Source: Escherichia coli
GTDB taxonomy: Bacteria > Pseudomonadota > Gammaproteobacteria > Enterobacterales > Enterobacteriaceae
DNA: 64,000 nt
Direction: 5' to 3' (one strand)
Assembly: GCF_002854065.1 (NCBI RefSeq)
Contig: NZ_CP024151.1
Of the stretch, positions 7,251-51,964 are shown one piece after another. Each line of letters opens with the position of its first letter. Within the stretch, counting starts at the first letter, position 1. Both the position numbers and the translations under genes were made by a program. The notes under the pieces were generated by a model. The model was not told the DNA's origin, searched no databases, and worked only from the letters and a program-made list of their open reading frames with translations.

Positions 7251-7779
7251 ATCTGGTCTGAACCAGATGGTTCCTCCATCAAAAGCGATGAGATGAAGAT
7301 CATTATCAAGAGTTTTGAGGGCTCTCCAAACACGAGTGTATGAACCTCCACTACAAACTGAAAGCTCTTTAACAGATAAGTTAACTTTGTTCGTATCAGG
7401 GATGTAGTGTGCGCACATTACTTGTACGAGGGAAACATAAAAACTAACCATCGACGCGCTGATTTTATTTTTACGTTTGCCATGCGCTATTGCAAGAAAA
7501 CCTCTGATGAAGATCAGATGCTTGAAGGAGTCAAAATGAGCCCTTTTCTGGAGAAGGCAGCAAAACGGGTGAGGATACTTGCTGGAATCAATGTGAAGAT
7601 CTGATTCAATCCCACCCGCTATTACTGAATGTGTTTCATGATTAGCCACACCATCCTGCACTTACAATGCACAGAAGGAGTGAGCACAGAAAGAAGTCTT
7701 GAACTTTTCCGGGCATATAACTATACTCCCCGCATAGCTGAATTGTTGGCTATGCGGTTTTATGGGGCCCCGGTAATCT

Positions 7780-7890
7780 TTCTAGTCGCCAAACTTGAAG
7801 AAGATTATCGGGGTTTTCGCTTTTCTGGCTCCTGTAAATCCACATCAGAACCAGTTCCCTGCCACCTTACGGCGTGGCCAGCCACAAAAT
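7780..7890 (+). ncRNA. copA: Putative CopA/CopT antisense copy-number control region
   Basis: Located in the repA leader just downstream of copB, opposite strand to repA; contains CGCCAA and GC-rich hairpin-capable sequence I associate with R1/R100 CopA/CopT. Exact ends and strand not verifiable without alignment. Confidence 0.35.
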
Positions 7891-8205: not shown

Positions 8206-8467
8206 CTCGCCTCCTCAATTCTCAAACAGGGATCGTTTCGCAGAGAATACTACAGTTTTTTGAAATCAGCGACTTGAAAGTTGTGACGATGATCTGTGTT
8301 GGCGCACAAATCATGTCTGATTACGACCGTTTAATGTGATTTTGATAATGAAATGACTGAAAAGCTGGAAATGCCTTAGCCAGGGTGCCGGCCCCGGGCG
8401 GGACCGGCTGTTTCTGGTATATAGGATGTCTGCCCCTGAAATACCTCACACTTCCGGAAAGCGGGGA

Positions 8468-8671
8468 CTTCCGTGCTTCGTAGGCCAGAGTTACCTGCAC
8501 CACTGTATTTCCTCTGTGAATATTCAGCTCACATAACCGTTCCCTGAATATCAGTGAAAAACACAACACCATGGCGCACACGGCGAGCAACCCGATAAGG
8601 GCATATTTCGTCATAAACTTTGACCTCTCTGCAAAGAAGAGGCTACAATCAGTAGTGTTAAGGTACTTCAT
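8468..8671 (-). CDS. srnB: Hok/Gef-family type I toxin homologue (SrnB-like)
   Basis: Translation MKYLNTTDCSLFFAERSKFMTKYALIGLLAVCAMVLCFSLIFRERLCELNIHRGNTVVQVTLAYEARK matches the SrnB sequence as I remember it; single TM helix plus conserved C-E-L motif. In this sequence the frame reads on to 8321 with no stop after ...EARK. Confidence 0.7.
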
Positions 8672-9619
8672 GCAGACCTCACGAGTTAATGGATTAACGA
8701 GTGGGGTCTTCGCATTTCTGGTACCTGCGTCTTGCCTGAACCAGAAAGGCTCAGACACCCGCCGCGATAATACCACATTCCCTGTTGCTGGCTATTACCC
8801 CCATTTGCCTGTTTTTGTTACAAAAACGCCGGGAGCGGGGGAAAACTTACTTTTTCCCGTTTCCGGGGGGGACAACTGAGCATTGCGAACGCGTCAGCTA
8901 CGATGTTCCGGTGATTGCTGATCAGCCCCTGTTGTATTCATAAACTAATTAACATTCATTCCGTCTGGTGCATAAATCTGCCCGTGAACATCTGCAGACA
9001 ATACCGACCATAAAAAAATAAATAATCCCAGTAGAATATATTTCCTCATATTATTATCCATAACAAATAAATGGCACCTGTACACCTGTATTTCAGGCAA
9101 TCCTGAATATTGCAGCGCACATTGAATAAGACGTTATTTCGTGACATTAATCACAAAATATAAAATCGCGACTTAATACGGAAAAAACTCTGTGCTACTC
9201 AGAACTGACTGGTCATACTGCCCGACCGGATATTAAAAAAGCAAATCTCATAAACTCCTTTCAGCCTTCTGACTCCTGGAGTAATGAAGGCTGCTTTTTC
9301 GTTACACCCTTCCCCGGCAGCGCCGGTAGCAGTGTTCAGCCCTTTTTCGGGCAAACTGCTGCCAGTCTGTCCGGGGCGCAACACAGGCAGCCCGTCGCCA
9401 TCCTTCTGCCGCTTCCATCCAGCGTCCACTGACCTCCAGAATAACGGCCCGGCTTCCGGCACGCTGCCAGCGCCAGACCTGACCGTTCCGTGAACTGTTT
9501 CTGAATCCATTCATCTTTATCACTCCTCTTTAACCCGTCAGTATTATGGTGTTAAATAATCTACTGAATTGGCTTCCTTTCGGGTACGGAAGTTTATTTC
9601 CTTTTAAGCCTTATTTCCC

Positions 9620-11028: not shown

Positions 11029-14000
11029 TCAGTCTCCGCCCAGGGTTTTCTCTTTCTGCAGGGCACGAACCATATCCCGCTCCATCTGCTGCAGTCGCTC
11101 CTGCAGCAGATTTTCCCGGGCAACATCCCGGACCGCTTCCCGCACCCGTTGTGATTCACGCAGCACACTCTCCGGCAGCGCGGCTTCCCGTTCAGATATG
11201 GCAGACCGGTCACGCTCCTGCCCGGCAATCTCCCTGACAGCCTGCTCTGTTTTGCCATCCGGCAGGTCAGGTTTGTTCTCTGCCATTTTACGGACAATTT
11301 CATCCGCACGGCGTTCCGTTTCACGGCGGATGGCCTCTTCAGCTTGCCGCTGTGCCAGTACCTCTGCCGTGACCGGTTCGCCATTTCCGGCTCCCGGCTG
11401 AACGCTGTTGTCCGGGATATCCCCCCACACGCGACCACCGGTGATGGTACCGGGATTCCACGGACGACCTTCACCGGCGATTCTTACCACCACACCGCTG
11501 TCAGGATTATCACGGGCAATCCGGACACCATCCTGCATATTATCAGCCAGCAGGCTCTCTCCGTTACGGCTGCCCTGCAGGGCCACGAACTGCGCATCCC
11601 CGCTGCCTTTCACCCGGCCTTCACCACTGAAGCCCCGCAGCCCGTTTCCGTCATCCGTGGTCAGCGGATTCAGCCAGATACCGGCGGACTTGCCGTTACG
11701 GTCAAAAGCCGGCAGTGCCACATACGGCTGCGGATATTTGCGCCCGGGTGCAATAAACCGTGCAGGATTGTCTCCCCCGGCAAGTCCCGCCTGACGGAGA
11801 ACGGCACGGCCGGCCGCCACGTCCCGCAGCTCCCGCGCCGTACTGAACAGCCGCTCTGCATTCATGACCTCCCGGTCCGATTTCGGCTCAAGCACATCGT
11901 GGGCAGTTCCTTTCTGTACGGCATTGTTAATGGCATCCGTCCAGCCCTGACGGTTATCGGTATACACCTGCACATGCTGCTTCATACGCGACAGGGCCAC
12001 GTAGGCTGACTCAAAGCCGGCCATCTGTTTCCGGCTGCCTTCCGTACCTTCAAGCGCGATGGCAAAGGTTTCACTTGCCCCCTGCGCACCGTGGGCGGTG
12101 ATGGCATAGGCCAGGTCAATATGTTGCTCTGCCCGCTCCTGACCGGGGCGAATCACCCGGGTCTGCTGTCCGTCCGACAGCGTGACACTGTCACCGGAAA
12201 CCGCTGTCACCGTCCAGACGCTGTTGGCCACATAACCGCGCTCCCGGTCACTCTTCGTGAAGCGCATCCGGTCACCGGTTCCCACCCGGATGGTGTCCGG
12301 GGTGTACAGTGTGACGCCTTCAGCCACCGCCTCCCGGGGCGAAATCAGCCGCGTGTTACCTTCAGCATCCTGCAGGGTTATCAGCCCGTCATCCCTGCTG
12401 ATACCGGCAATCCGGTGATACACATTATCCACCAGGGCAAGTGCGTCCCGATGTGTCTCCCAGGTGGAGAGACGACGCAGCTCCCCGTCGCGTATATTCG
12501 CTGTGTTCAGGACAGGCACCATGACCTGCTCTTTTCCCAGCTCACCGGCCTTTTCCCGTGCATCATGAATCATGCTGTTCAGCACGCGCCGGTCCTCATT
12601 CAGGTGCGTGACAATCAGCGTCTGCTCCCGTGCTTCCGGTGTTCTGCCGGTATAGTCGCGGACAATGGCTTCATACAGTGTCATGGGGACATCCGGGAAA
12701 GCCTCGCCTTTCAGCATCGCCTTCTGCTGCGCTTCTGCCAGTTTCGCTTCCTGGCTGTGACTGAACTCCATCACGGAGTGCTCCGGTGCCCATGCGCCCT
12801 CCAGACGTGGCACCTGAGACGGTTTCACACTCTCAAGCCCGGATAGTGCCCTTTCCACATCCCGGTTAATCAGGTTGTATACCGCCTCCCGCAGTTCCGG
12901 CGTCTGACGCACAATCTCCTTCATGATGGCCACATCGGCAGCACTGCGCGTCTGCTGGAGACGGAAAGGCTGACCGGGCGCGATGGCCTGCAGCTGGTCC
13001 GTGTCACCACTGGCCACGGCACGACCGCCACCGGCCGCAATCAGGGCGTATGCCCGTGCCATGTCGGTATTGCCCACCATTGAGCTCTCATCGAGCAGGA
13101 ACAGCGTGTTGCTGAAATCCGGCGTTTCTCCGCTGCGCTGCTGCAGCTGCGTGTCATGCAGAAAAGACGCCAATGTCTGCGCATCCACGCCGGCGCTGCG
13201 CATCTCCCCGACCGCACGGTGTGTGGGACCCAGCCCAACGACACGGGGACGCTCACTCTCCGGCAGCATGTTCACGGCTGACATCACCGCCCGGAACTGT
13301 GTGGTCTTACCCACACCGGCATAGCCCTGCACCACCGTGAAGCGGTCGGACGTTTCCAGTATCATGCGGGTGGCGGCGCGCTGTCCTGATGTCAGTTTCT
13401 CCATGAGTTCGCCAGGTACTCTCTCCATCAGCGGCGTGACCGCCTCCTTACCTTCGAGAATATGGCGAAGAATGCTCTTTTCTGCCTCATACGACGCACG
13501 GGAAACCAGCAGGCCTGTGCCATAGTCTTTTGCCACATCCACATACAGTAAATCACCCCGTTTTATCTGCGCATCGATTTCCCCTCCCAGTTCAGTAAAA
13601 CTGGTTCCTTCTGCAGCAAACGACTTCGCCTCTGTCAGCAGGTCCACCATGCTGAAGGCCAGGTTTTTACTTTCCAGCACAGGAAGGGCCAGATGAATGG
13701 CCTGCTGTGCCGGCGTGTGAAGCCCGGCTTTCTGCAGACTGATAGCGGTTTCCAGCAATGTCTCACCGGCACGCGCCTTTATCTGCTCAGAAACCACCGT
13801 AAAGGAGGGATGGCGGGCAAGTTTTTCCGCAGTACGGGTTTCATCCAGTGAGGAATACAGCCGGACATCACGACCGCTGCGGGCCAGACCGTTCAGGGTG
13901 GCGTTGTCCATTGCCATCTGTGTGACGGAGGCAAAAACCTTCGCACTGTCGCTGACGGAATGCCCGGGCGTTTCCACCCAGCCGCTCTCCAGCTTCAGTG

Positions 14001-19967: not shown

Positions 19968-22789
19968 AATGGCCCCTTCAATCGTTCTTTCTTATCATCC
20001 ACCATCTGTTTTAACGCATCTTCAGACGGTGTTGGCATTAATTTCTGTCGTTTATTTTCTTCATTATATCTGTTGTTTTGTTGAATTTCTTCCTGTTTGT
20101 GATTATTTTTTAACTCTGAATATTGTCTGTCTACAATATTTTCTTCGCCATGAATACTATTCTGAGTATCTCCGATATTCCCTTTATATTCTGTGACCAT
20201 ATTATCAACCTGATGTTTTACATCATTACGGATATTACTGTCCTGCGTTCTTTGATCAATAATGGCCTGATGCCCCTGATGGTCAGCAATAATATCCTGG
20301 CTGCCACCACCCGAAGGTACGCTCTCCATTCCTTTACCAATATCCCCACGGGATTCACGCCAGGCATTATCAACACCAGGCTGCACCTGTTCCTGAACAA
20401 AAGACCATGCCATCGCCCGACGGCGTTCTGCAATCTCCGGTGAACTGGTGTTTGTCAGAATAGCTTCGGCATCCTGCGGTGCGTGTTTCATCACATACTG
20501 TGCAAACTGTTGCGACAAATCTTCGCTCATCTGCCCACTCATGCTTTCAGTACGGGATGCCATTTCAGCATATTCATGGCTGCGGGTCATATTCGTCGTG
20601 TACTGGTCGTAACTCTGTTTCGCTGAGTTCAGGGCTGCAGACAACTGGTCCACGCGGGAATCGGCATTATTGTCAGTATGGCTGCCGGATTCACTGACTT
20701 TGCGACTGGTAAAGTAATCGCTGGCCTCTTTAAAGTCCTTACTGGCTTTAGCATCGATATCATGGCGAGCATCATGGGTAGCCCTGCTGCCACTACTTGC
20801 TGAATGTGAGTCATCATCCGTTGCATCCAGGCTCCCCTTAAATCCACCTCTGATGCCTACCCCACCACCAACACCAAGAATTTTAGGTTTAACCCCCCAT
20901 TCAGCATGAGCATCAGCATACATTCCACCAGATAGCCTGGTACTTGTTGATGCCAGTTCCTGAGTCGCCTGCTCATTACTGATATTATGCGCCTTCGCAT
21001 AGCTTTCCACTGCACTGCGCATACGGCTGGCCATCATGGAGTCCTGAGCACTCATCGTGCTGTCAGCACCACCGGTGACAGAATCACTGCTCCCCCGGTT
21101 AGAACCAAACTGACTGAGCGTGTTCCAGGCACTGGCAATACTGCTGCTGAACCCATGCAGGGCACTTTCTGCTCTGTTCGATGCTTCCCGGGCCATTTCC
21201 TGTTGTGCCGCCGCAATCTGACGCGTTGCATTGATGCCGACCGGTAACCGGGACATCGCTCCGCTTGCATCCATCACCATATTACCGTCACGGGTCTGTG
21301 TGGCGGTTGCGCCACTGCCGGTCTGGTACATCATCTGACCAAACGACGTGGTGCTGTTGGTGCTCCAGCTGAAGCCGTTAACATTCTCCGTCTGCATGTT
21401 GCCGTAGGAGTAATTACCGTCAACCACACTGCCTGCTGCACTGGCGGTCGGGCTGATAGCAGAGGAAGCGAAATGGCTGTACACACTGGAAAATCCTGCC
21501 CCGAGCCCCCTGACCATCATCCAGGATAATGGCGGGATCATCATGGAAAGATACCCGGCAGTGGAAGCCAGATCGGAGTATTTCAGCTGTATCTGTGAAA
21601 TTTCCGAGAGCACCACCGGTGCACCATTCTGCTTTGCATAAAATGTCATGGCGCTGTTCAGAATGGCGTACAACATTGGCCATGACTGCAACCACATCAG
21701 GGCAAACACATAGCCTTTCAGGACGGACAGCGTCAGTTTGTTGAAGACAGCCGCCAGTACCAGGAGCGGGAAAATACCGATGGCGATCCCCGTCAGGATG
21801 GTCTGCGTCATGGGCAGTGTCCGCATCGCCACATGACCGATGGAGACATGTGCCAGACGTTGCTTCTCCATCGATGATGTGGTGGCCAGATTCACCAGGC
21901 TGGCCGAATCACCATTACGTGCGGCATAACTGGTGATCCCCTCCTTCAGCGCATTGATGGTGACATTCTGGCGGATGATCTGGCTGGCTGATTTACTTGA
22001 GCCATAGAAGTAACTGTAACTGTCGCCAATCAGCGTACTGAACAACAGGTTCGGATCAGGGCGTCCACCAAATAGCTGCTGGGCATAATAATGCCATGTT
22101 TTTCCGCCACTCTGTGTGTCCAGATTCAGCTTGTCTTTCAGCGAAACCGACGCGTCCTTACAGGTCACGAAATTATTATTGCTGTCATAAACGCCCCGCA
22201 GCGGACTGGGGCGGGAAAAAATCAGCGTGTAAGGATCAGCGGAGGCCATCAGTTCCTCCAGCGTGTATTTGTGGTTCAGGTAAATATCCCCCATCACGCA
22301 GTTCTGCACATAATCCTGGAAAAGATTGGCGATTTCCGGATTACGGGACAAAAAGTCGGTGCTTTTTGATACCAGTTCTGCGCCAAACAGCATCCCCGTT
22401 TTGCTGTAGGTGACACTGTCCGGTTGCGTGAAGATCATCTCGTAACTGGCCACCATTGCATGCCCGATACGGGTCGTCAGTGAAAGTGGCATCGCCAGTC
22501 CGACCGGCACATTATCCACCCGGTGAACTTTGACCAGGTCACTGTTATCAATAATCTGCACCGATGTGCGGACATTAACCAGCAGGCTGATAAGCACAAA
22601 CACGGCCACCCAGCCCAGCAAATCCATCACGTTGTGCCGCTGTACCCACATTACGGCCACCGCGAGAACAGACAATGTGAGCGCAATTTTTTCAATGGAA
22701 TCCCACGTCCGGGTCCCCATAAAGGCGGCAATGGCATTCAGGTTATTCCGCAACCACTCACCACCGGCAATCACATAAACTTCATTCAC
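19964..22789 (-). CDS. traG: TraG (mating-pair stabilisation / entry-exclusion partner; VirB6-like N-terminal domain)
   Basis: 941 aa; multi-TM N-terminus and large periplasmic C-terminal domain; position after traH. Confidence 0.92.
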   Translation of the reverse strand: MNEVYVIAGGEWLRNNLNAIAAFMGTRTWDSIEKIALTLSVLAVAVMWVQRHNVMDLLGWVAVFVLISLLVNVRTSVQIIDNSDLVKVHRVDNVPVGLAMPLSLTTRIGHAMVASYEMIFTQPDSVTYSKTGMLFGAELVSKSTDFLSRNPEIANLFQDYVQNCVMGDIYLNHKYTLEELMASADPYTLIFSRPSPLRGVYDSNNNFVTCKDASVSLKDKLNLDTQSGGKTWHYYAQQLFGGRPDPNLLFSTLIGDSYSYFYGSSKSASQIIRQNVTINALKEGITSYAARNGDSASLVNLATTSSMEKQRLAHVSIGHVAMRTLPMTQTILTGIAIGIFPLLVLAAVFNKLTLSVLKGYVFALMWLQSWPMLYAILNSAMTFYAKQNGAPVVLSEISQIQLKYSDLASTAGYLSMMIPPLSWMMVRGLGAGFSSVYSHFASSAISPTASAAGSVVDGNYSYGNMQTENVNGFSWSTNSTTSFGQMMYQTGSGATATQTRDGNMVMDASGAMSRLPVGINATRQIAAAQQEMAREASNRAESALHGFSSSIASAWNTLSQFGSNRGSSDSVTGGADSTMSAQDSMMASRMRSAVESYAKAHNISNEQATQELASTSTRLSGGMYADAHAEWGVKPKILGVGGGVGIRGGFKGSLDATDDDSHSASSGSRATHDARHDIDAKASKDFKEASDYFTSRKVSESGSHTDNNADSRVDQLSAALNSAKQSYDQYTTNMTRSHEYAEMASRTESMSGQMSEDLSQQFAQYVMKHAPQDAEAILTNTSSPEIAERRRAMAWSFVQEQVQPGVDNAWRESRGDIGKGMESVPSGGGSQDIIADHQGHQAIIDQRTQDSNIRNDVKHQVDNMVTEYKGNIGDTQNSIHGEENIVDRQYSELKNNHKQEEIQQNNRYNEENKRQKLMPTPSEDALKQMVDDKKERLKGPL

Positions 22790-39536: not shown

Positions 39537-40223
39537 TTACTTAACGCTATAAAATTCACGAATTATATTTAATAGCAAATCTATTTTCCCTTTATAGATA
39601 CATGACACTCTGAATAAATCAAAGTGTTCAAAAAATTCTTTTATTTTCCGTTTAACTGGTTTAATTCGATCCTCAGATGCTCTGTCTGTAATACCCAATT
39701 CTCTGGCAATTGTTGCATGACCAACACCCAGCATATAAAAAGAGAAAACAAGCAATGTCCCGGGGGAAAGATCATTCCATATCGTTAATTTATCAGAAGT
39801 ATTTGTATTACTTCCACTCTGACTTAACGCAAAAAATGGATAATCAGGAAACGGATTAATTTGCCATAAAACAACAGATTCGTCATTATAAAAAGAAACA
39901 TTCTCCATCCTTATCTGATAGATTTCGCCATGAAAATTAAAACGACGACAAAATGCAGAGCCATGTCCAAGAGCCTGGCATTCCAATTCAAGTGATGAAA
40001 GAAAAATTTCAACCTGCAGACGTATATAACTCTCTCCGGATAAGGGTTTATCTTCTCTGGAAAAGAGTTCAATAAAAGCCCCATTGGCATAAAGGATTTT
40101 CCGGTTTTTGTTACGGACACAAACCGGAACGGGAGAATTTCTGTAGATATTCTGAACGTTAAGGATGTACTTATTTACAGATTGACTGTTAAGTGGCCTT
40201 TCTCTACGATCCAGCGCACACAT
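39537..40223 (-). CDS. traJ: TraJ transfer operon activator
   Basis: 228 aa from [14 protein letters not shown]...; C-terminal HTH; start at 40223 preceded by GGAGG and embedded in the FinP-complementary leader. Confidence 0.85.
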
Positions 40224-40296
40224 AGGAACCTCCGTTAAGGATTCTATGGACAGTCGATGCAGGGAGTTCAGACCTCCCTGCATCGGCGATTTTCAG
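40217..40296 (+). ncRNA. finP: FinP antisense RNA (complementary to traJ 5' UTR/start)
   Basis: Two stem-loops on the plus strand opposite the traJ RBS/start: CATAGGAACCTCCGTTAAGGATTCTATG and GATGCAGGGAGTTCAGACCTCCCTGCATC followed by GGCGATTTT (intrinsic terminator). Ends approximate. Confidence 0.6.
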
Positions 40297-40413
40297 TTTC
40301 AATTTTTAACGTGGCATTAACCACGTAATTAATATACTAATTATCTGACGTATTGTCATCTTTTTGAATCATAAAAATTCTTATATTTGAACCAACTCAA
40401 ACTTCATTTTCAT

Positions 40414-43885: not shown

Positions 43886-44166
43886 ATCAGAGCAGGAAGA
43901 AAAAGAGAATAATCACAGGGAAGGTGATGTGATTTCTGACAGGCCATAACCAGAGAAGGCGGGGGAAAAGAACGGGCGCCGCAGGCGCGCGTTCATCCCC
44001 GTTCCTGAAGGGAAACGACCTTCCTGAAGTCAGGTTGTTCATGCCCGTACAACATCAGCAAGGAGAAAGGGGCTACCGGCGAACCAGCAGCCCCTTTATA
44101 AAGGCGCTTCAGTAGTCAGACCAGCATCAGTCCTGAAAAGGCGGGCCTGCGCCCGCCTCCAGGTTG

Positions 44167-44325
44167 CTACTTACCGGATTCGTAAGCCATGAAAGCCGCC
44201 ACCTCCCTGTGTCCGTCTCTGTAACGAATCTCGCACAGCGATTTTCGTGTCAGATAAGTGAATATCAACAGTGTGAGACACACGATCAACACACACCAGA
44301 CAAGGGAACTTCGTGGTAGTTTCAT
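44167..44325 (-). CDS. hok: Hok-family type I toxin (flmA/hok-like)
   Basis: Reverse translation [52 protein letters not shown], a 52-aa Hok; below the 60-aa track cut-off, found by reading the overlapping mok frame. Confidence 0.9.
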
Positions 44326-44383
44326 GGCCTTCTTCTCCTTGCGCAAAGCGCGGTAAGAGGCTATCCTGATGTGGACTAGACAT
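44171..44383 (-). CDS. mok: Mok (modulator of killing), overlapping reading frame of the hok locus
   Basis: 70-aa track ORF overlapping hok in an alternative frame and starting upstream, as in hok/mok/sok loci. Confidence 0.7.
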
Positions 44384-44400
44384 AGGGATGCCTCGTGGTG
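44325..44400 (+). ncRNA. sok: Predicted Sok-type antisense RNA
   Basis: Inferred from locus architecture (antisense to the mok translation-initiation region); no sequence-level confirmation, coordinates approximate. Confidence 0.35.
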
Positions 44401-44604
44401 GTTAATGAAAATTAACTTACTACGGGGCTATCTTCTTTCTGTCACACAACACGGCAACAAACCACCTTCACGTCATGAGGCAGAAAGCCTCAAGCGCCGG
44501 GCACATCATAGCCCATATACCTGCACGCTGACCACACTCACTTTCCCTGAAAATAATCCGCTCATTCAGACCGTTCACGGGAAATCCGTGTGATTGTTGC
44601 CGCA

Positions 44605-51496: not shown

Positions 51497-51727
51497 TCAG
51501 TTAAAAGCGCGTTTCAGTTCGAGTGTGCGGAGCACCTGCCCGAAGGCCGTGTTTTTCATGGCGGGGATGTGTACACCACGCCCCCGGTGAAAACTCCGGG
51601 CAATGTGTCGCCCGAAGGCTTTCAGCACGGGGTCAATTTCCGGCGCGGGGATGTCTTCGCGTCTGAAACGGGGATGACGGCGGGGCTTTACAGCCGCTGC
51701 GGAAGGTGAAACAATACTTACTGTCAT
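51497..51727 (-). CDS. Hypothetical small basic protein, 76 aa
   Basis: First ORF downstream (minus-sense) of repeat copy 3; Arg/Lys-rich. Confidence 0.45.
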   Translation of the reverse strand: MTVSIVSPSAAAVKPRRHPRFRREDIPAPEIDPVLKAFGRHIARSFHRGRGVHIPAMKNTAFGQVLRTLELKRAFN

Positions 51728-51964
51728 AAATGAAACTCCTTATGACAAATTGGTTAACAATGCCGTCAAAATTGGTTGTGCAATTCTTACGGCGTGGATT
51801 AAGCAGGTCCCTGACCTGCTTTTTTCATATCTGCGTCTGACGTTCTACGGTGTTTTCCTCCTTCTGTTCCTGCGTTCTCATTACCTGCCAGCCGGATGAC
51901 TGACAGAACAAATAAATGCATATTGCCGGAGCCTGAAATAAATCCTGATTTTTAAAGAACATCA

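Follow-up and report, generated by a model that had tools for sequence, protein, structure and literature searches.

The locus described here lies on the minus strand of an F-like plasmid of Escherichia coli, in a 64,000-nt stretch of contig NZ_CP024151.1 that was analysed as a whole and is henceforth called the window. It is placed between finO and the RepFIC/FII replicon (repA2 (copB), copA, repA1), i.e., in the context in which F carries srnB. Plasmids with identical or near-identical DNA are F-like as well (IncFIB/IncFIC) and have the gene order finO, small ORF, srnB locus, repA2 (copB), tap, and repA1, and CopA RNA was matched in the window at 7734-7822 via Rfam. Based on sequence and position, the locus was identified as the F-type srnB/srnC module, a type I toxin–antitoxin system of the hok/sok family, because F has srnB at the same position and the product of F srnB (49 aa, WP_001312851.1) differs from the core encoded in the window by T14M as the sole difference. 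Met14 is also present in the intact allele of MSB1_9I. The SrnB/Hok core CDS itself (8468..8614, minus strand, 49 codons, MTKYALIGLLAVCAMVLCFSLIFRERLCELNIHRGNTVVQVTLAYEARK) is intact, and HOK_GEF (Pfam PF01848) was matched with 29.5 bits (cutoff 22) at amino acids 23-64 of the 116-aa frame described below. A second hok/sok locus of the R1 type is located in the window at about 44.1-44.5 kb and is apparently intact.

The toxin mRNA promoter was placed at 8767..8794 (minus strand; TAGCCA, 16-nt spacer, TG-extended TATTAT) by a promoter scan, with a predicted +1 at about 8760; in the Rfam alignment, the sok model begins (position 1) at 8760. The toxin mRNA leader including the antisense target (8602..8760, minus strand) was matched by Rfam RF01794 ‘sok’ with 94.5 bits; the match falls on the mRNA-sense strand, and the leader region hardly varies among nine plasmids. 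A promoter-like site for the SrnC antisense RNA was detected on the plus strand at 8620..8649 (TTGACC, 18-nt spacer, TACAAT; promoter scan, 10/12 matches). This putative SrnC promoter is identical in F, and transcription from it is predicted to run opposite the leader. An in-frame leader ORF, the counterpart of mok, occupies 8615..8671 (minus strand, MKYLNTTDCSLFFAERSKF), and the frame of its ATG at 8671 is continuous with that of the Hok ATG at 8614, as in F, predicting coupling of the two; RefSeq starts its 116-aa call at 8671. The 5′ element GGGUGUCUG (8752..8760, minus strand), equivalent to ‘tac’ of R1 hok, is predicted to pair with the 3′ fold-back element CAGACAUCC (8424..8432, minus strand), equivalent to ‘fbi’ of R1 hok, in which a lineage-specific C>T at 8426 changes one G-C pair to G-U. 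The +1, the truncated end, and the full-length end of srnB were set by reference to R1 hok, the promoter scan, the Rfam alignment, and folding. Taken together, the promoter, the 5′ and 3′ end-pairing elements, the leader ORF, and the SrnC region are predicted to be intact.

Compared with srnB/srnC of F (NC_002483 2926..3075), the window has the same site and shares the toxin promoter, both end-pairing elements (5′ and 3′ fold-back), the leader ORF, and the putative antisense promoter. It differs by the C>T in the fold-back element (8426), by a few neutral-looking substitutions, and by the absence of 24 bp, which leaves no stop after Lys49 and no post-stop hairpin. Apart from this gap, no other disabling change was found in the Hok core, the promoters, the leader, or the end-pairing elements, an observation that by itself counts against decay of the locus.

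The preliminary description of this DNA had reported a SrnB/Hok-like core without a stop after its Lys, with TCC as the next codon and a frame open to 8321 over about 48 extra codons. Minus-strand translation agrees with this: the codon after the final Lys of the core is TCC, and 48 more sense codons (SPLSGSV...HIKRS; 8324..8467, minus strand, SPLSGSVRYFRGRHPIYQKQPVPPGAGTLAKAFPAFQSFHYQNHIKRS) were counted up to the first in-frame stop, a TAA at 8321..8323 (minus strand) that follows the fold-back element at a distance of 101 nt and a second hairpin (see below) at 64 nt. The comparison drawn there with a 52-aa Hok at 44167..44325 was likewise found to be correct on inspection of the R1-type hok of the window. 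The maximal ORF (8321..8776, 151 aa) opens with a GTG at 8776..8774. As this GTG shares bases with the TGn of the extended -10 box in the toxin promoter and precedes the predicted +1 (about 8760), it is not a plausible start; realistically, translation would begin at the leader ATG (8671, giving 116 aa) or at the Hok ATG (8614, giving 97 aa). A run of 48 open codons past the lost stop has a probability of p = 0.10 with random codons and p = 0.08 with shuffles of the local sequence. The length of the tail is unremarkable, and the non-random part is its cause, a clean 24-bp deletion between 8-bp direct repeats.

Members of the family encode a small toxin of ~50 aa that ends soon after the conserved C-terminal region and have a stable stem-loop just 3′ of the stop; in the window, there is no stop after Lys49 and no such stem-loop. 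As two of the features that define a working member, the stop after a ~50-aa toxin and the terminal stem-loop, are both absent, the locus is better classified as a disrupted srnB than as a gene for a Hok toxin.

The 24-bp deletion and RNA folding

Alignments of the window with pAPEC-O1-ColBM, MSB1_9I plasmid 2, and F yielded one clean 24-bp gap and nothing else notable. Intact alleles read ...GAAGC ACGGAAGT AAGCTGCCGGGCGGGG ACGGAAGT CCCCGC..., with the two copies of ACGGAAGT 24 bp apart. The window retains a single copy, which forms the deletion junction (8467..8474, minus strand), and the other copy is gone together with the 16 bp between the copies. Both the TAA stop and the 5′ arm of a 9-bp GC hairpin fall within the lost 24 bp. 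As the repeat holds the last codons, ..Ala-Arg-Lys is regenerated and the 49-aa core is kept. The preliminary description had noticed the missing stop and missed the lesion itself, which is a 24-bp deletion between ACGGAAGT repeats and not an altered stop codon; the alignment with F srnB that it had proposed shows that F has the stop and that the window is 24 bp shorter at this point. Repeat detection returned CGGAAGT three times in F, with start-to-start spacings of 24 and 17 nt. The third copy is found in the window at 8450..8456 (minus strand) and, together with copy 2, is the substrate of a 17-bp deletion in other plasmids. A gap flanked by repeats in this way is what slipped-strand deletion between short direct repeats classically leaves behind, and we infer this to be the mechanism. 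The deletion, its repeat flanks, and the loss of the hairpin are directly observed.

In intact alleles, the post-stop hairpin comprises 9 bp and a GGAA tetraloop (-19.3 kcal/mol), and in F its arms are the inverted repeat GCGGGGAC/GTCCCCGC with a 4-nt loop. The hairpin of the R1-type hok in the window (44157..44140) is equivalent in position and almost equal in strength (-19.5 kcal/mol). In the srnB locus of the window, the 3′ arm GUCCCCGC (8461..8468, minus strand) is orphaned, its partner arm being deleted, and the best local structure reaches -5.9 kcal/mol. When the 66-nt stretch was compared with shuffles, z was +0.83 in the window and -1.94 in the intact allele; the fold of the window stretch is thus no more stable than that of its shuffles. 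The structure of -5.9 kcal/mol is a weak alternative hairpin, and the fact that it persists counts, as a separate observation, against decay.

Full-length folds were calculated for the transcript from the +1 to just past the fold-back element. In the predicted minimum-energy folds of the window and of two intact alleles, nt 1-9 pair with CAGACA(C/U)CC, and the variants of the end-pairing elements are wobble-compatible transitions. The full-length fold of the window (-125.3 kcal/mol) differs from that of the intact allele (-151.4 kcal/mol) only by the absent hairpin. The same pattern of tac/fbi end pairing has been described for R1 hok mRNA (PMC9841398). A second GC-rich hairpin (GCCGGTCCCGCCCGGGGCCGGC; 8387..8408, minus strand) is placed like the R1 hok terminator, without a T-run, and a scan returned no terminator-like site 3′ of the locus. 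The RHB28 and E. albertii alleles have lost this second hairpin.

Occurrence and independent origins

Alleles were counted using junction queries of 31 to 43 nt that the intact allele cannot seed. These replaced the identity bands of a 301-nt query, which could not separate alleles on divergent backgrounds. The 24-bp deletion junction was found in 16 plasmids of PLSDB and in 15 of 5,426 complete E. coli genomes, always on plasmids, while the intact stop and hairpin were found in 2,647 PLSDB plasmids including F and the 17-bp deletion junction in 77; the 24-bp allele accounts for ~0.6% of these loci in PLSDB. With the stop present in about 2,650 plasmids including F, the earlier statement that the toxin family normally ends at this Lys holds, and the extension is not the normal state in homologues. 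The 701-bp region was recovered at 100% identity from seven PLSDB plasmids and from four plasmids of complete E. coli genomes (three of them being the same records), and a 301-bp query centred on the junction at 100% identity from eight PLSDB plasmids. Contigs on which the product is recorded number 231 for the 97-aa form and 48 for the 116-aa form. The allele occurs in plasmids of several hosts and countries; its persistence across them speaks against decay, but hitch-hiking could explain it.

Haplotypes were compared over about 450 nt of flanks. The deletion allele of JBAGPU010000037 shows 0 substitutions relative to the intact allele of F and 13 relative to the window, and the window itself shows two substitutions relative to the intact allele of MSB1_9I. 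The deletion allele of pE1246_1 is one substitution away from pZH193 and about 40 from the others; in pZH193, the hairpin is intact and the same 2-bp frameshift as in pE1246_1 is present. The deletion allele of E. albertii is separated from all others by at least 16 substitutions. Recurrence of the deletion is thus directly observed, and since the same deletion sits on unrelated flanking haplotypes, the flanks point to at least four independent origins, with RHB28 perhaps being a fifth or else derived from the lineage of the window.

The hairpin is also hit by other deletions. The 17-bp deletion (copies 2 and 3) removes the hairpin loop and the 3′ arm and leaves the ORF intact. It was found on at least two backgrounds, with 66 of the 77 plasmids coming from Shigella and 11 from Escherichia, and the Shigella alleles examined are short remnants in virulence plasmids. 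In one further plasmid, the same hairpin is struck by a 10-bp deletion. The two commonest deletion sizes (24 and 17) are the two repeat spacings. Slippage would also predict a 41-bp deletion between copy 1 and copy 3; a junction query of PLSDB found none, and slippage over the longer distance is possibly rarer.

Predicted fate of the toxin and alternative explanations

The effect of the deletion was judged against the saturation mutagenesis of R1 hok/Sok by FASTBAC-Seq (Le Rhun et al. 2022, PMC9841398). In that system, six substitutions of the hok stop codon, which add 17 aa, were loss-of-function, and an 8-aa C-terminal FLAG tag on Hok abolished toxicity (PMC9841398). In the 3′ UTR of R1 hok, 19 of the 22 loss-of-function substitutions disrupt CG pairs in the stem that terminates the truncated mRNA; this mRNA form was absent in G345A and C358A, which was ascribed to 3′-to-5′ exonucleases such as PNPase (PMC9841398). 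The R1 numbering (stop at 330-332, stem around 343-359) fits the sequence of the hok copy in the window. The laboratory mutants of R1 hok fall into two lesion classes, i.e., loss of the stop or extension, and disruption of the terminal stem-loop, and the srnB allele described here has both. They are laboratory-selected single-nucleotide substitutions, whereas the lesion here is one 24-bp slippage deletion in the srnB paralogue that is recurrent in nature. As either defect alone abolishes killing in R1 hok, the toxin arm is very probably dead.

Of the explanations considered, we regard it as highly probable that this is a decay allele, in which the toxin arm would be inactivated at both the RNA and the protein level and the antisense arm left intact. 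The preliminary description had offered an inactivating read-through, an extended variant, and a sequencing difference, and the first of these is the best supported. Slipped-strand deletion between the ACGGAAGT copies would have removed the stop and the 5′ arm of the hairpin and spared the 49-aa core. The full-length mRNA would still be made and would still be closed by pairing of its 5′ and 3′ ends. Trimming 3′ exonucleases would then meet no block at the normal end of the truncated mRNA, such that the active form would fail to accumulate, and any translation would yield Hok with a 48-aa basic tail. As the first stop lies beyond the fold-back element and the second hairpin, translation of processed transcripts that lack it may give a non-stop product, to be dealt with by ribosome rescue; with no canonical terminator detected, however, this non-stop step is uncertain and is a secondary and the weakest part of the scheme. 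Both the loss of toxicity and this fate of the RNA are what we infer by analogy with R1 hok. The analogy likewise predicts that post-segregational and rifampicin-induced killing would be lost. Because the same deletion arose independently in several plasmid lineages, the allele is best seen as ordinary decay of a known type I locus at a slippage hot spot.

Decayed hok loci of E. coli K-12 likewise keep recognisable parts and have probably lost killing, and redundant hok copies decay. Their lesions are said to be IS insertions, point mutations, and rearrangements. The K-12 hok loci are chromosomal and mainly IS-disrupted, whereas the srnB locus here is plasmid-borne and carries a repeat-mediated microdeletion at a recurrent site. 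A passage of the Hok-diversity preprint, citing Pedersen and Gerdes 1999, gives the chromosomal hok loci of K-12 as reported inactive.

The read-through tail is a translation of the 3′ UTR, the fold-back element, the second hairpin, and intergenic DNA. It contains 3 Lys, 4 Arg, 3 His, and 0 Asp/Glu (net charge +7), and a Pfam search of the tail gave no domain match. The C-terminal end of Hok should be periplasmic and must cross the membrane; a basic tail is an unlikely appendage for such an end. The tail also varies among alleles with the same 24-bp deletion: in RHB28-E3-C06, a further 16-bp deletion shifts the frame into a different 46-aa tail, in pE1246_1 the frame stops already upstream of the deletion, and in the E. 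albertii allele a further 58-bp deletion changes the tail again. The tail was considered as a real domain or selected ORF and rejected as such, given no Pfam match, unremarkable length, and no conservation.

A dead toxin is compatible with a second explanation, namely that the locus is selected as an SrnC antitoxin-only module with an anti-addiction role against srnB of competing F-like plasmids, in which case the recurrent hairpin deletions would reflect selection besides mutational bias. The fact that the 24-, 17-, and 10-bp lesions all lie at the 3′ end and leave the antisense promoter and its almost invariant target untouched would fit this, as would the at least four independent origins of the 24-bp deletion, and anti-addiction by chromosomal toxin–antitoxin homologues is discussed in the Hok-diversity preprint. 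However, mutational bias suffices for a pattern in which the deletion sizes are the repeat spacings (24 and 17 nt), the frequency of the allele is low (0.6%), and several lineages carrying the 24-bp deletion have gone on to lose further parts of the locus, as neutral decay predicts. We consider such selection very unlikely. A related idea, that the triple CGGAAGT repeat across stop and hairpin is a built-in, contingency-like off-switch of high frequency that yields a selected antitoxin-only SrnC locus, is likewise very unlikely; if it were true, the cost of the toxin would be removed and protection against competitor plasmids carrying srnB kept.

That the 97- or 116-aa product is a working toxin, perhaps retargeted and still mediating post-segregational killing, is very unlikely. 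Extension by 17 aa or by an 8-aa tag abolishes the toxicity of R1 Hok (PMC9841398), and the tail here is translated UTR with no domain match, a charge of +7, and no acidic residues at a presumed periplasmic end, is of unremarkable length, and is not conserved between lineages in which this deletion arose independently. In any case, the hairpin on which the active mRNA depends has been destroyed, and the allele makes up under 1% of srnB loci. These points stand against an intact Hok core with its HOK_GEF match, an intact promoter, leader, and antisense region, the RefSeq name ‘Hok/Gef family protein’, and the presence of the 97-aa form on 231 contigs. A sequencing or assembly artefact, for which the GC-rich and repetitive region raises a prior possibility alone, is excluded for practical purposes by the same junction in 16 PLSDB plasmids and 15 complete E. 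coli genomes from various laboratories, hosts, and countries, by the identical 701-bp and 301-bp matches, by the product on hundreds of contigs, and by a 24-bp loss that is unlike a homopolymer-type error.

Annotation and significance

RefSeq annotation of identical DNA varies, with a 116-aa ‘Hok/Gef family protein’ given in one record and an 83-aa ‘hypothetical protein’ in a second one; no gene is listed at the locus in the corresponding PLSDB gene tables. No description of this lesion was found in the searchable literature, which covers little of the older hok work. Comparative plasmid papers simply score srnBC as present, and in surveys of this kind, dead copies will be taken for functional addiction systems. 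In the Hok-diversity preprint, ORFs are discarded only if they are short or contain an internal stop; extended alleles and protein-intact alleles without the hairpin would pass filters of this type. The lesion is an annotation trap, and the 17-bp and 10-bp alleles seem fully intact as protein though the RNA element is gone.

In biological terms, this is a small point, i.e., a known addiction module that has probably been knocked out in a plasmid with another hok/sok copy. The system itself is already known from F (srnB/srnC), and the interest of the allele is modest and lies in its recurrence, in the natural corroboration of the R1 mutagenesis in a paralogue, and in the caution it calls for in annotation. 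One natural event reproduces both lesion classes of R1 hok and has done so at least four times, and the 17-bp and 10-bp deletions hit the same hairpin. This recurrent loss of the hairpin provides natural evidence that the post-stop hairpin is also important in the srnB branch.

Deletions and other lesions of the srnB locus

A 17-bp deletion (CGGAAGTCCCCGCTTTC), distinct from the 24-bp deletion of the window, joins copies 2 and 3 of the CGGAAGT repeat in other copies of srnB, the F-type Hok-family toxin locus. It was found in NZ_CP091047 (p3_STEC346; about 560–600 of the compared locus), in Escherichia fergusonii NZ_CP057230, and in CP027641, in each case at the equivalent of window positions 8450..8468. 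The loop and the 3′ arm of the hairpin following the stop codon are lost, the 49-aa open reading frame is unaffected, and these loci carry a normal Hok/Gef annotation despite the missing RNA element. The deletion junction was present in 77 PLSDB plasmids representing at least two backgrounds. It was carried by 66 PLSDB Shigella plasmids, mostly of about 180–250 kb and including NC_004851 and NC_002698; strains 301 and M90T were represented by their virulence plasmids. For NC_004851, the single Shigella record inspected, the match (74429–74480) was a short remnant without annotation that covered 15% of the srnB query.

In pZH193 (NZ_CP014498) and pE1246_1 (NZ_CP025574), unrelated sequence was found in place of the toxin promoter and the 5′ end element, and a 2-bp deletion (TGGCCT--GAAGC) cuts Hok to 44 aa (WP_023144756.1), a product nonetheless labelled “Hok/Gef family protein.” On top of this 2-bp deletion, pE1246_1 has gained the 24-bp deletion. 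Further independent damage to the locus is represented by a 10-bp deletion in the hairpin (NZ_OZ039654), a 1-nt frameshift combined with a replaced 3′ end (CP057208), the loss of 16 bp within the second hairpin (CP099153), and a 58-bp deletion by which both the fold-back element and the second hairpin were lost (E. albertii BJWN01000111). In the E. albertii sequence, a TacA-like/acetyltransferase gene pair adjoins the locus where repA2 would be.

Compared with its nearest intact relative, the window lineage carries two private substitutions besides its deletion. At position 8426 (minus strand), a C>T change in the 3′ fold-back element converts a G–C pair of the end-pairing helix to G–U, and at position 8790 (minus strand), a T>C change in the toxin promoter turns its −35 hexamer from TAGTCA into TAGCCA. 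Because there are only two such changes, relaxed constraint and drift are not separable for them.

Annotation of identical srnB sequences

DNA identical to srnB of the window is annotated inconsistently across NZ_CP096835, NZ_CP045999, NZ_CP055056, and CP101797. One of these records lists a 116-aa Hok/Gef family protein (WP_373415215.1), and another an 83-aa hypothetical protein (WP_434781854.1) whose start lies within the transmembrane segment. The PLSDB copies of two of the records list no gene at srnB and have one locus tag missing from the series, the skipped tag probably being the trace of an earlier pseudogene call.

Antisense RNAs of the window

The window has strong Rfam matches to antisense RNA families known from plasmid pHK01 (AS-pc02, 177.7 bits; AS-traI, AS-traG, and AS-pc01), located on the plus strand at 9222–9405, 13374–13450, 21985–22070, and 51722–51824. 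Together with the usual FinP/traJ 5′ UTR pair at about 40217–40326, they are consistent with an F-like transfer region. Rfam also reported the “sok antitoxin” model RF01794 at 8602–8760 and 44323–44499, both on the minus strand. As both matches lie on the toxin mRNA strand, what the model represents is the leader of the hok mRNA rather than the antisense RNA; the promoter-like site for the antisense RNA lies on the opposite, plus strand at 8620–8649.

The second hok/sok locus

A second hok/sok locus, of the R1 type, is situated at 43990–44500 on the minus strand and appears intact from its sequence, with a 52-aa open reading frame ending in a stop codon, the hairpin GGCGGGC-GCAG-GCCCGCC, an AAGCGCC element complementary to the 5′ element GGCGCUU, and a terminator that includes a T-run. 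The redundancy provided by this locus could leave srnB free to decay.
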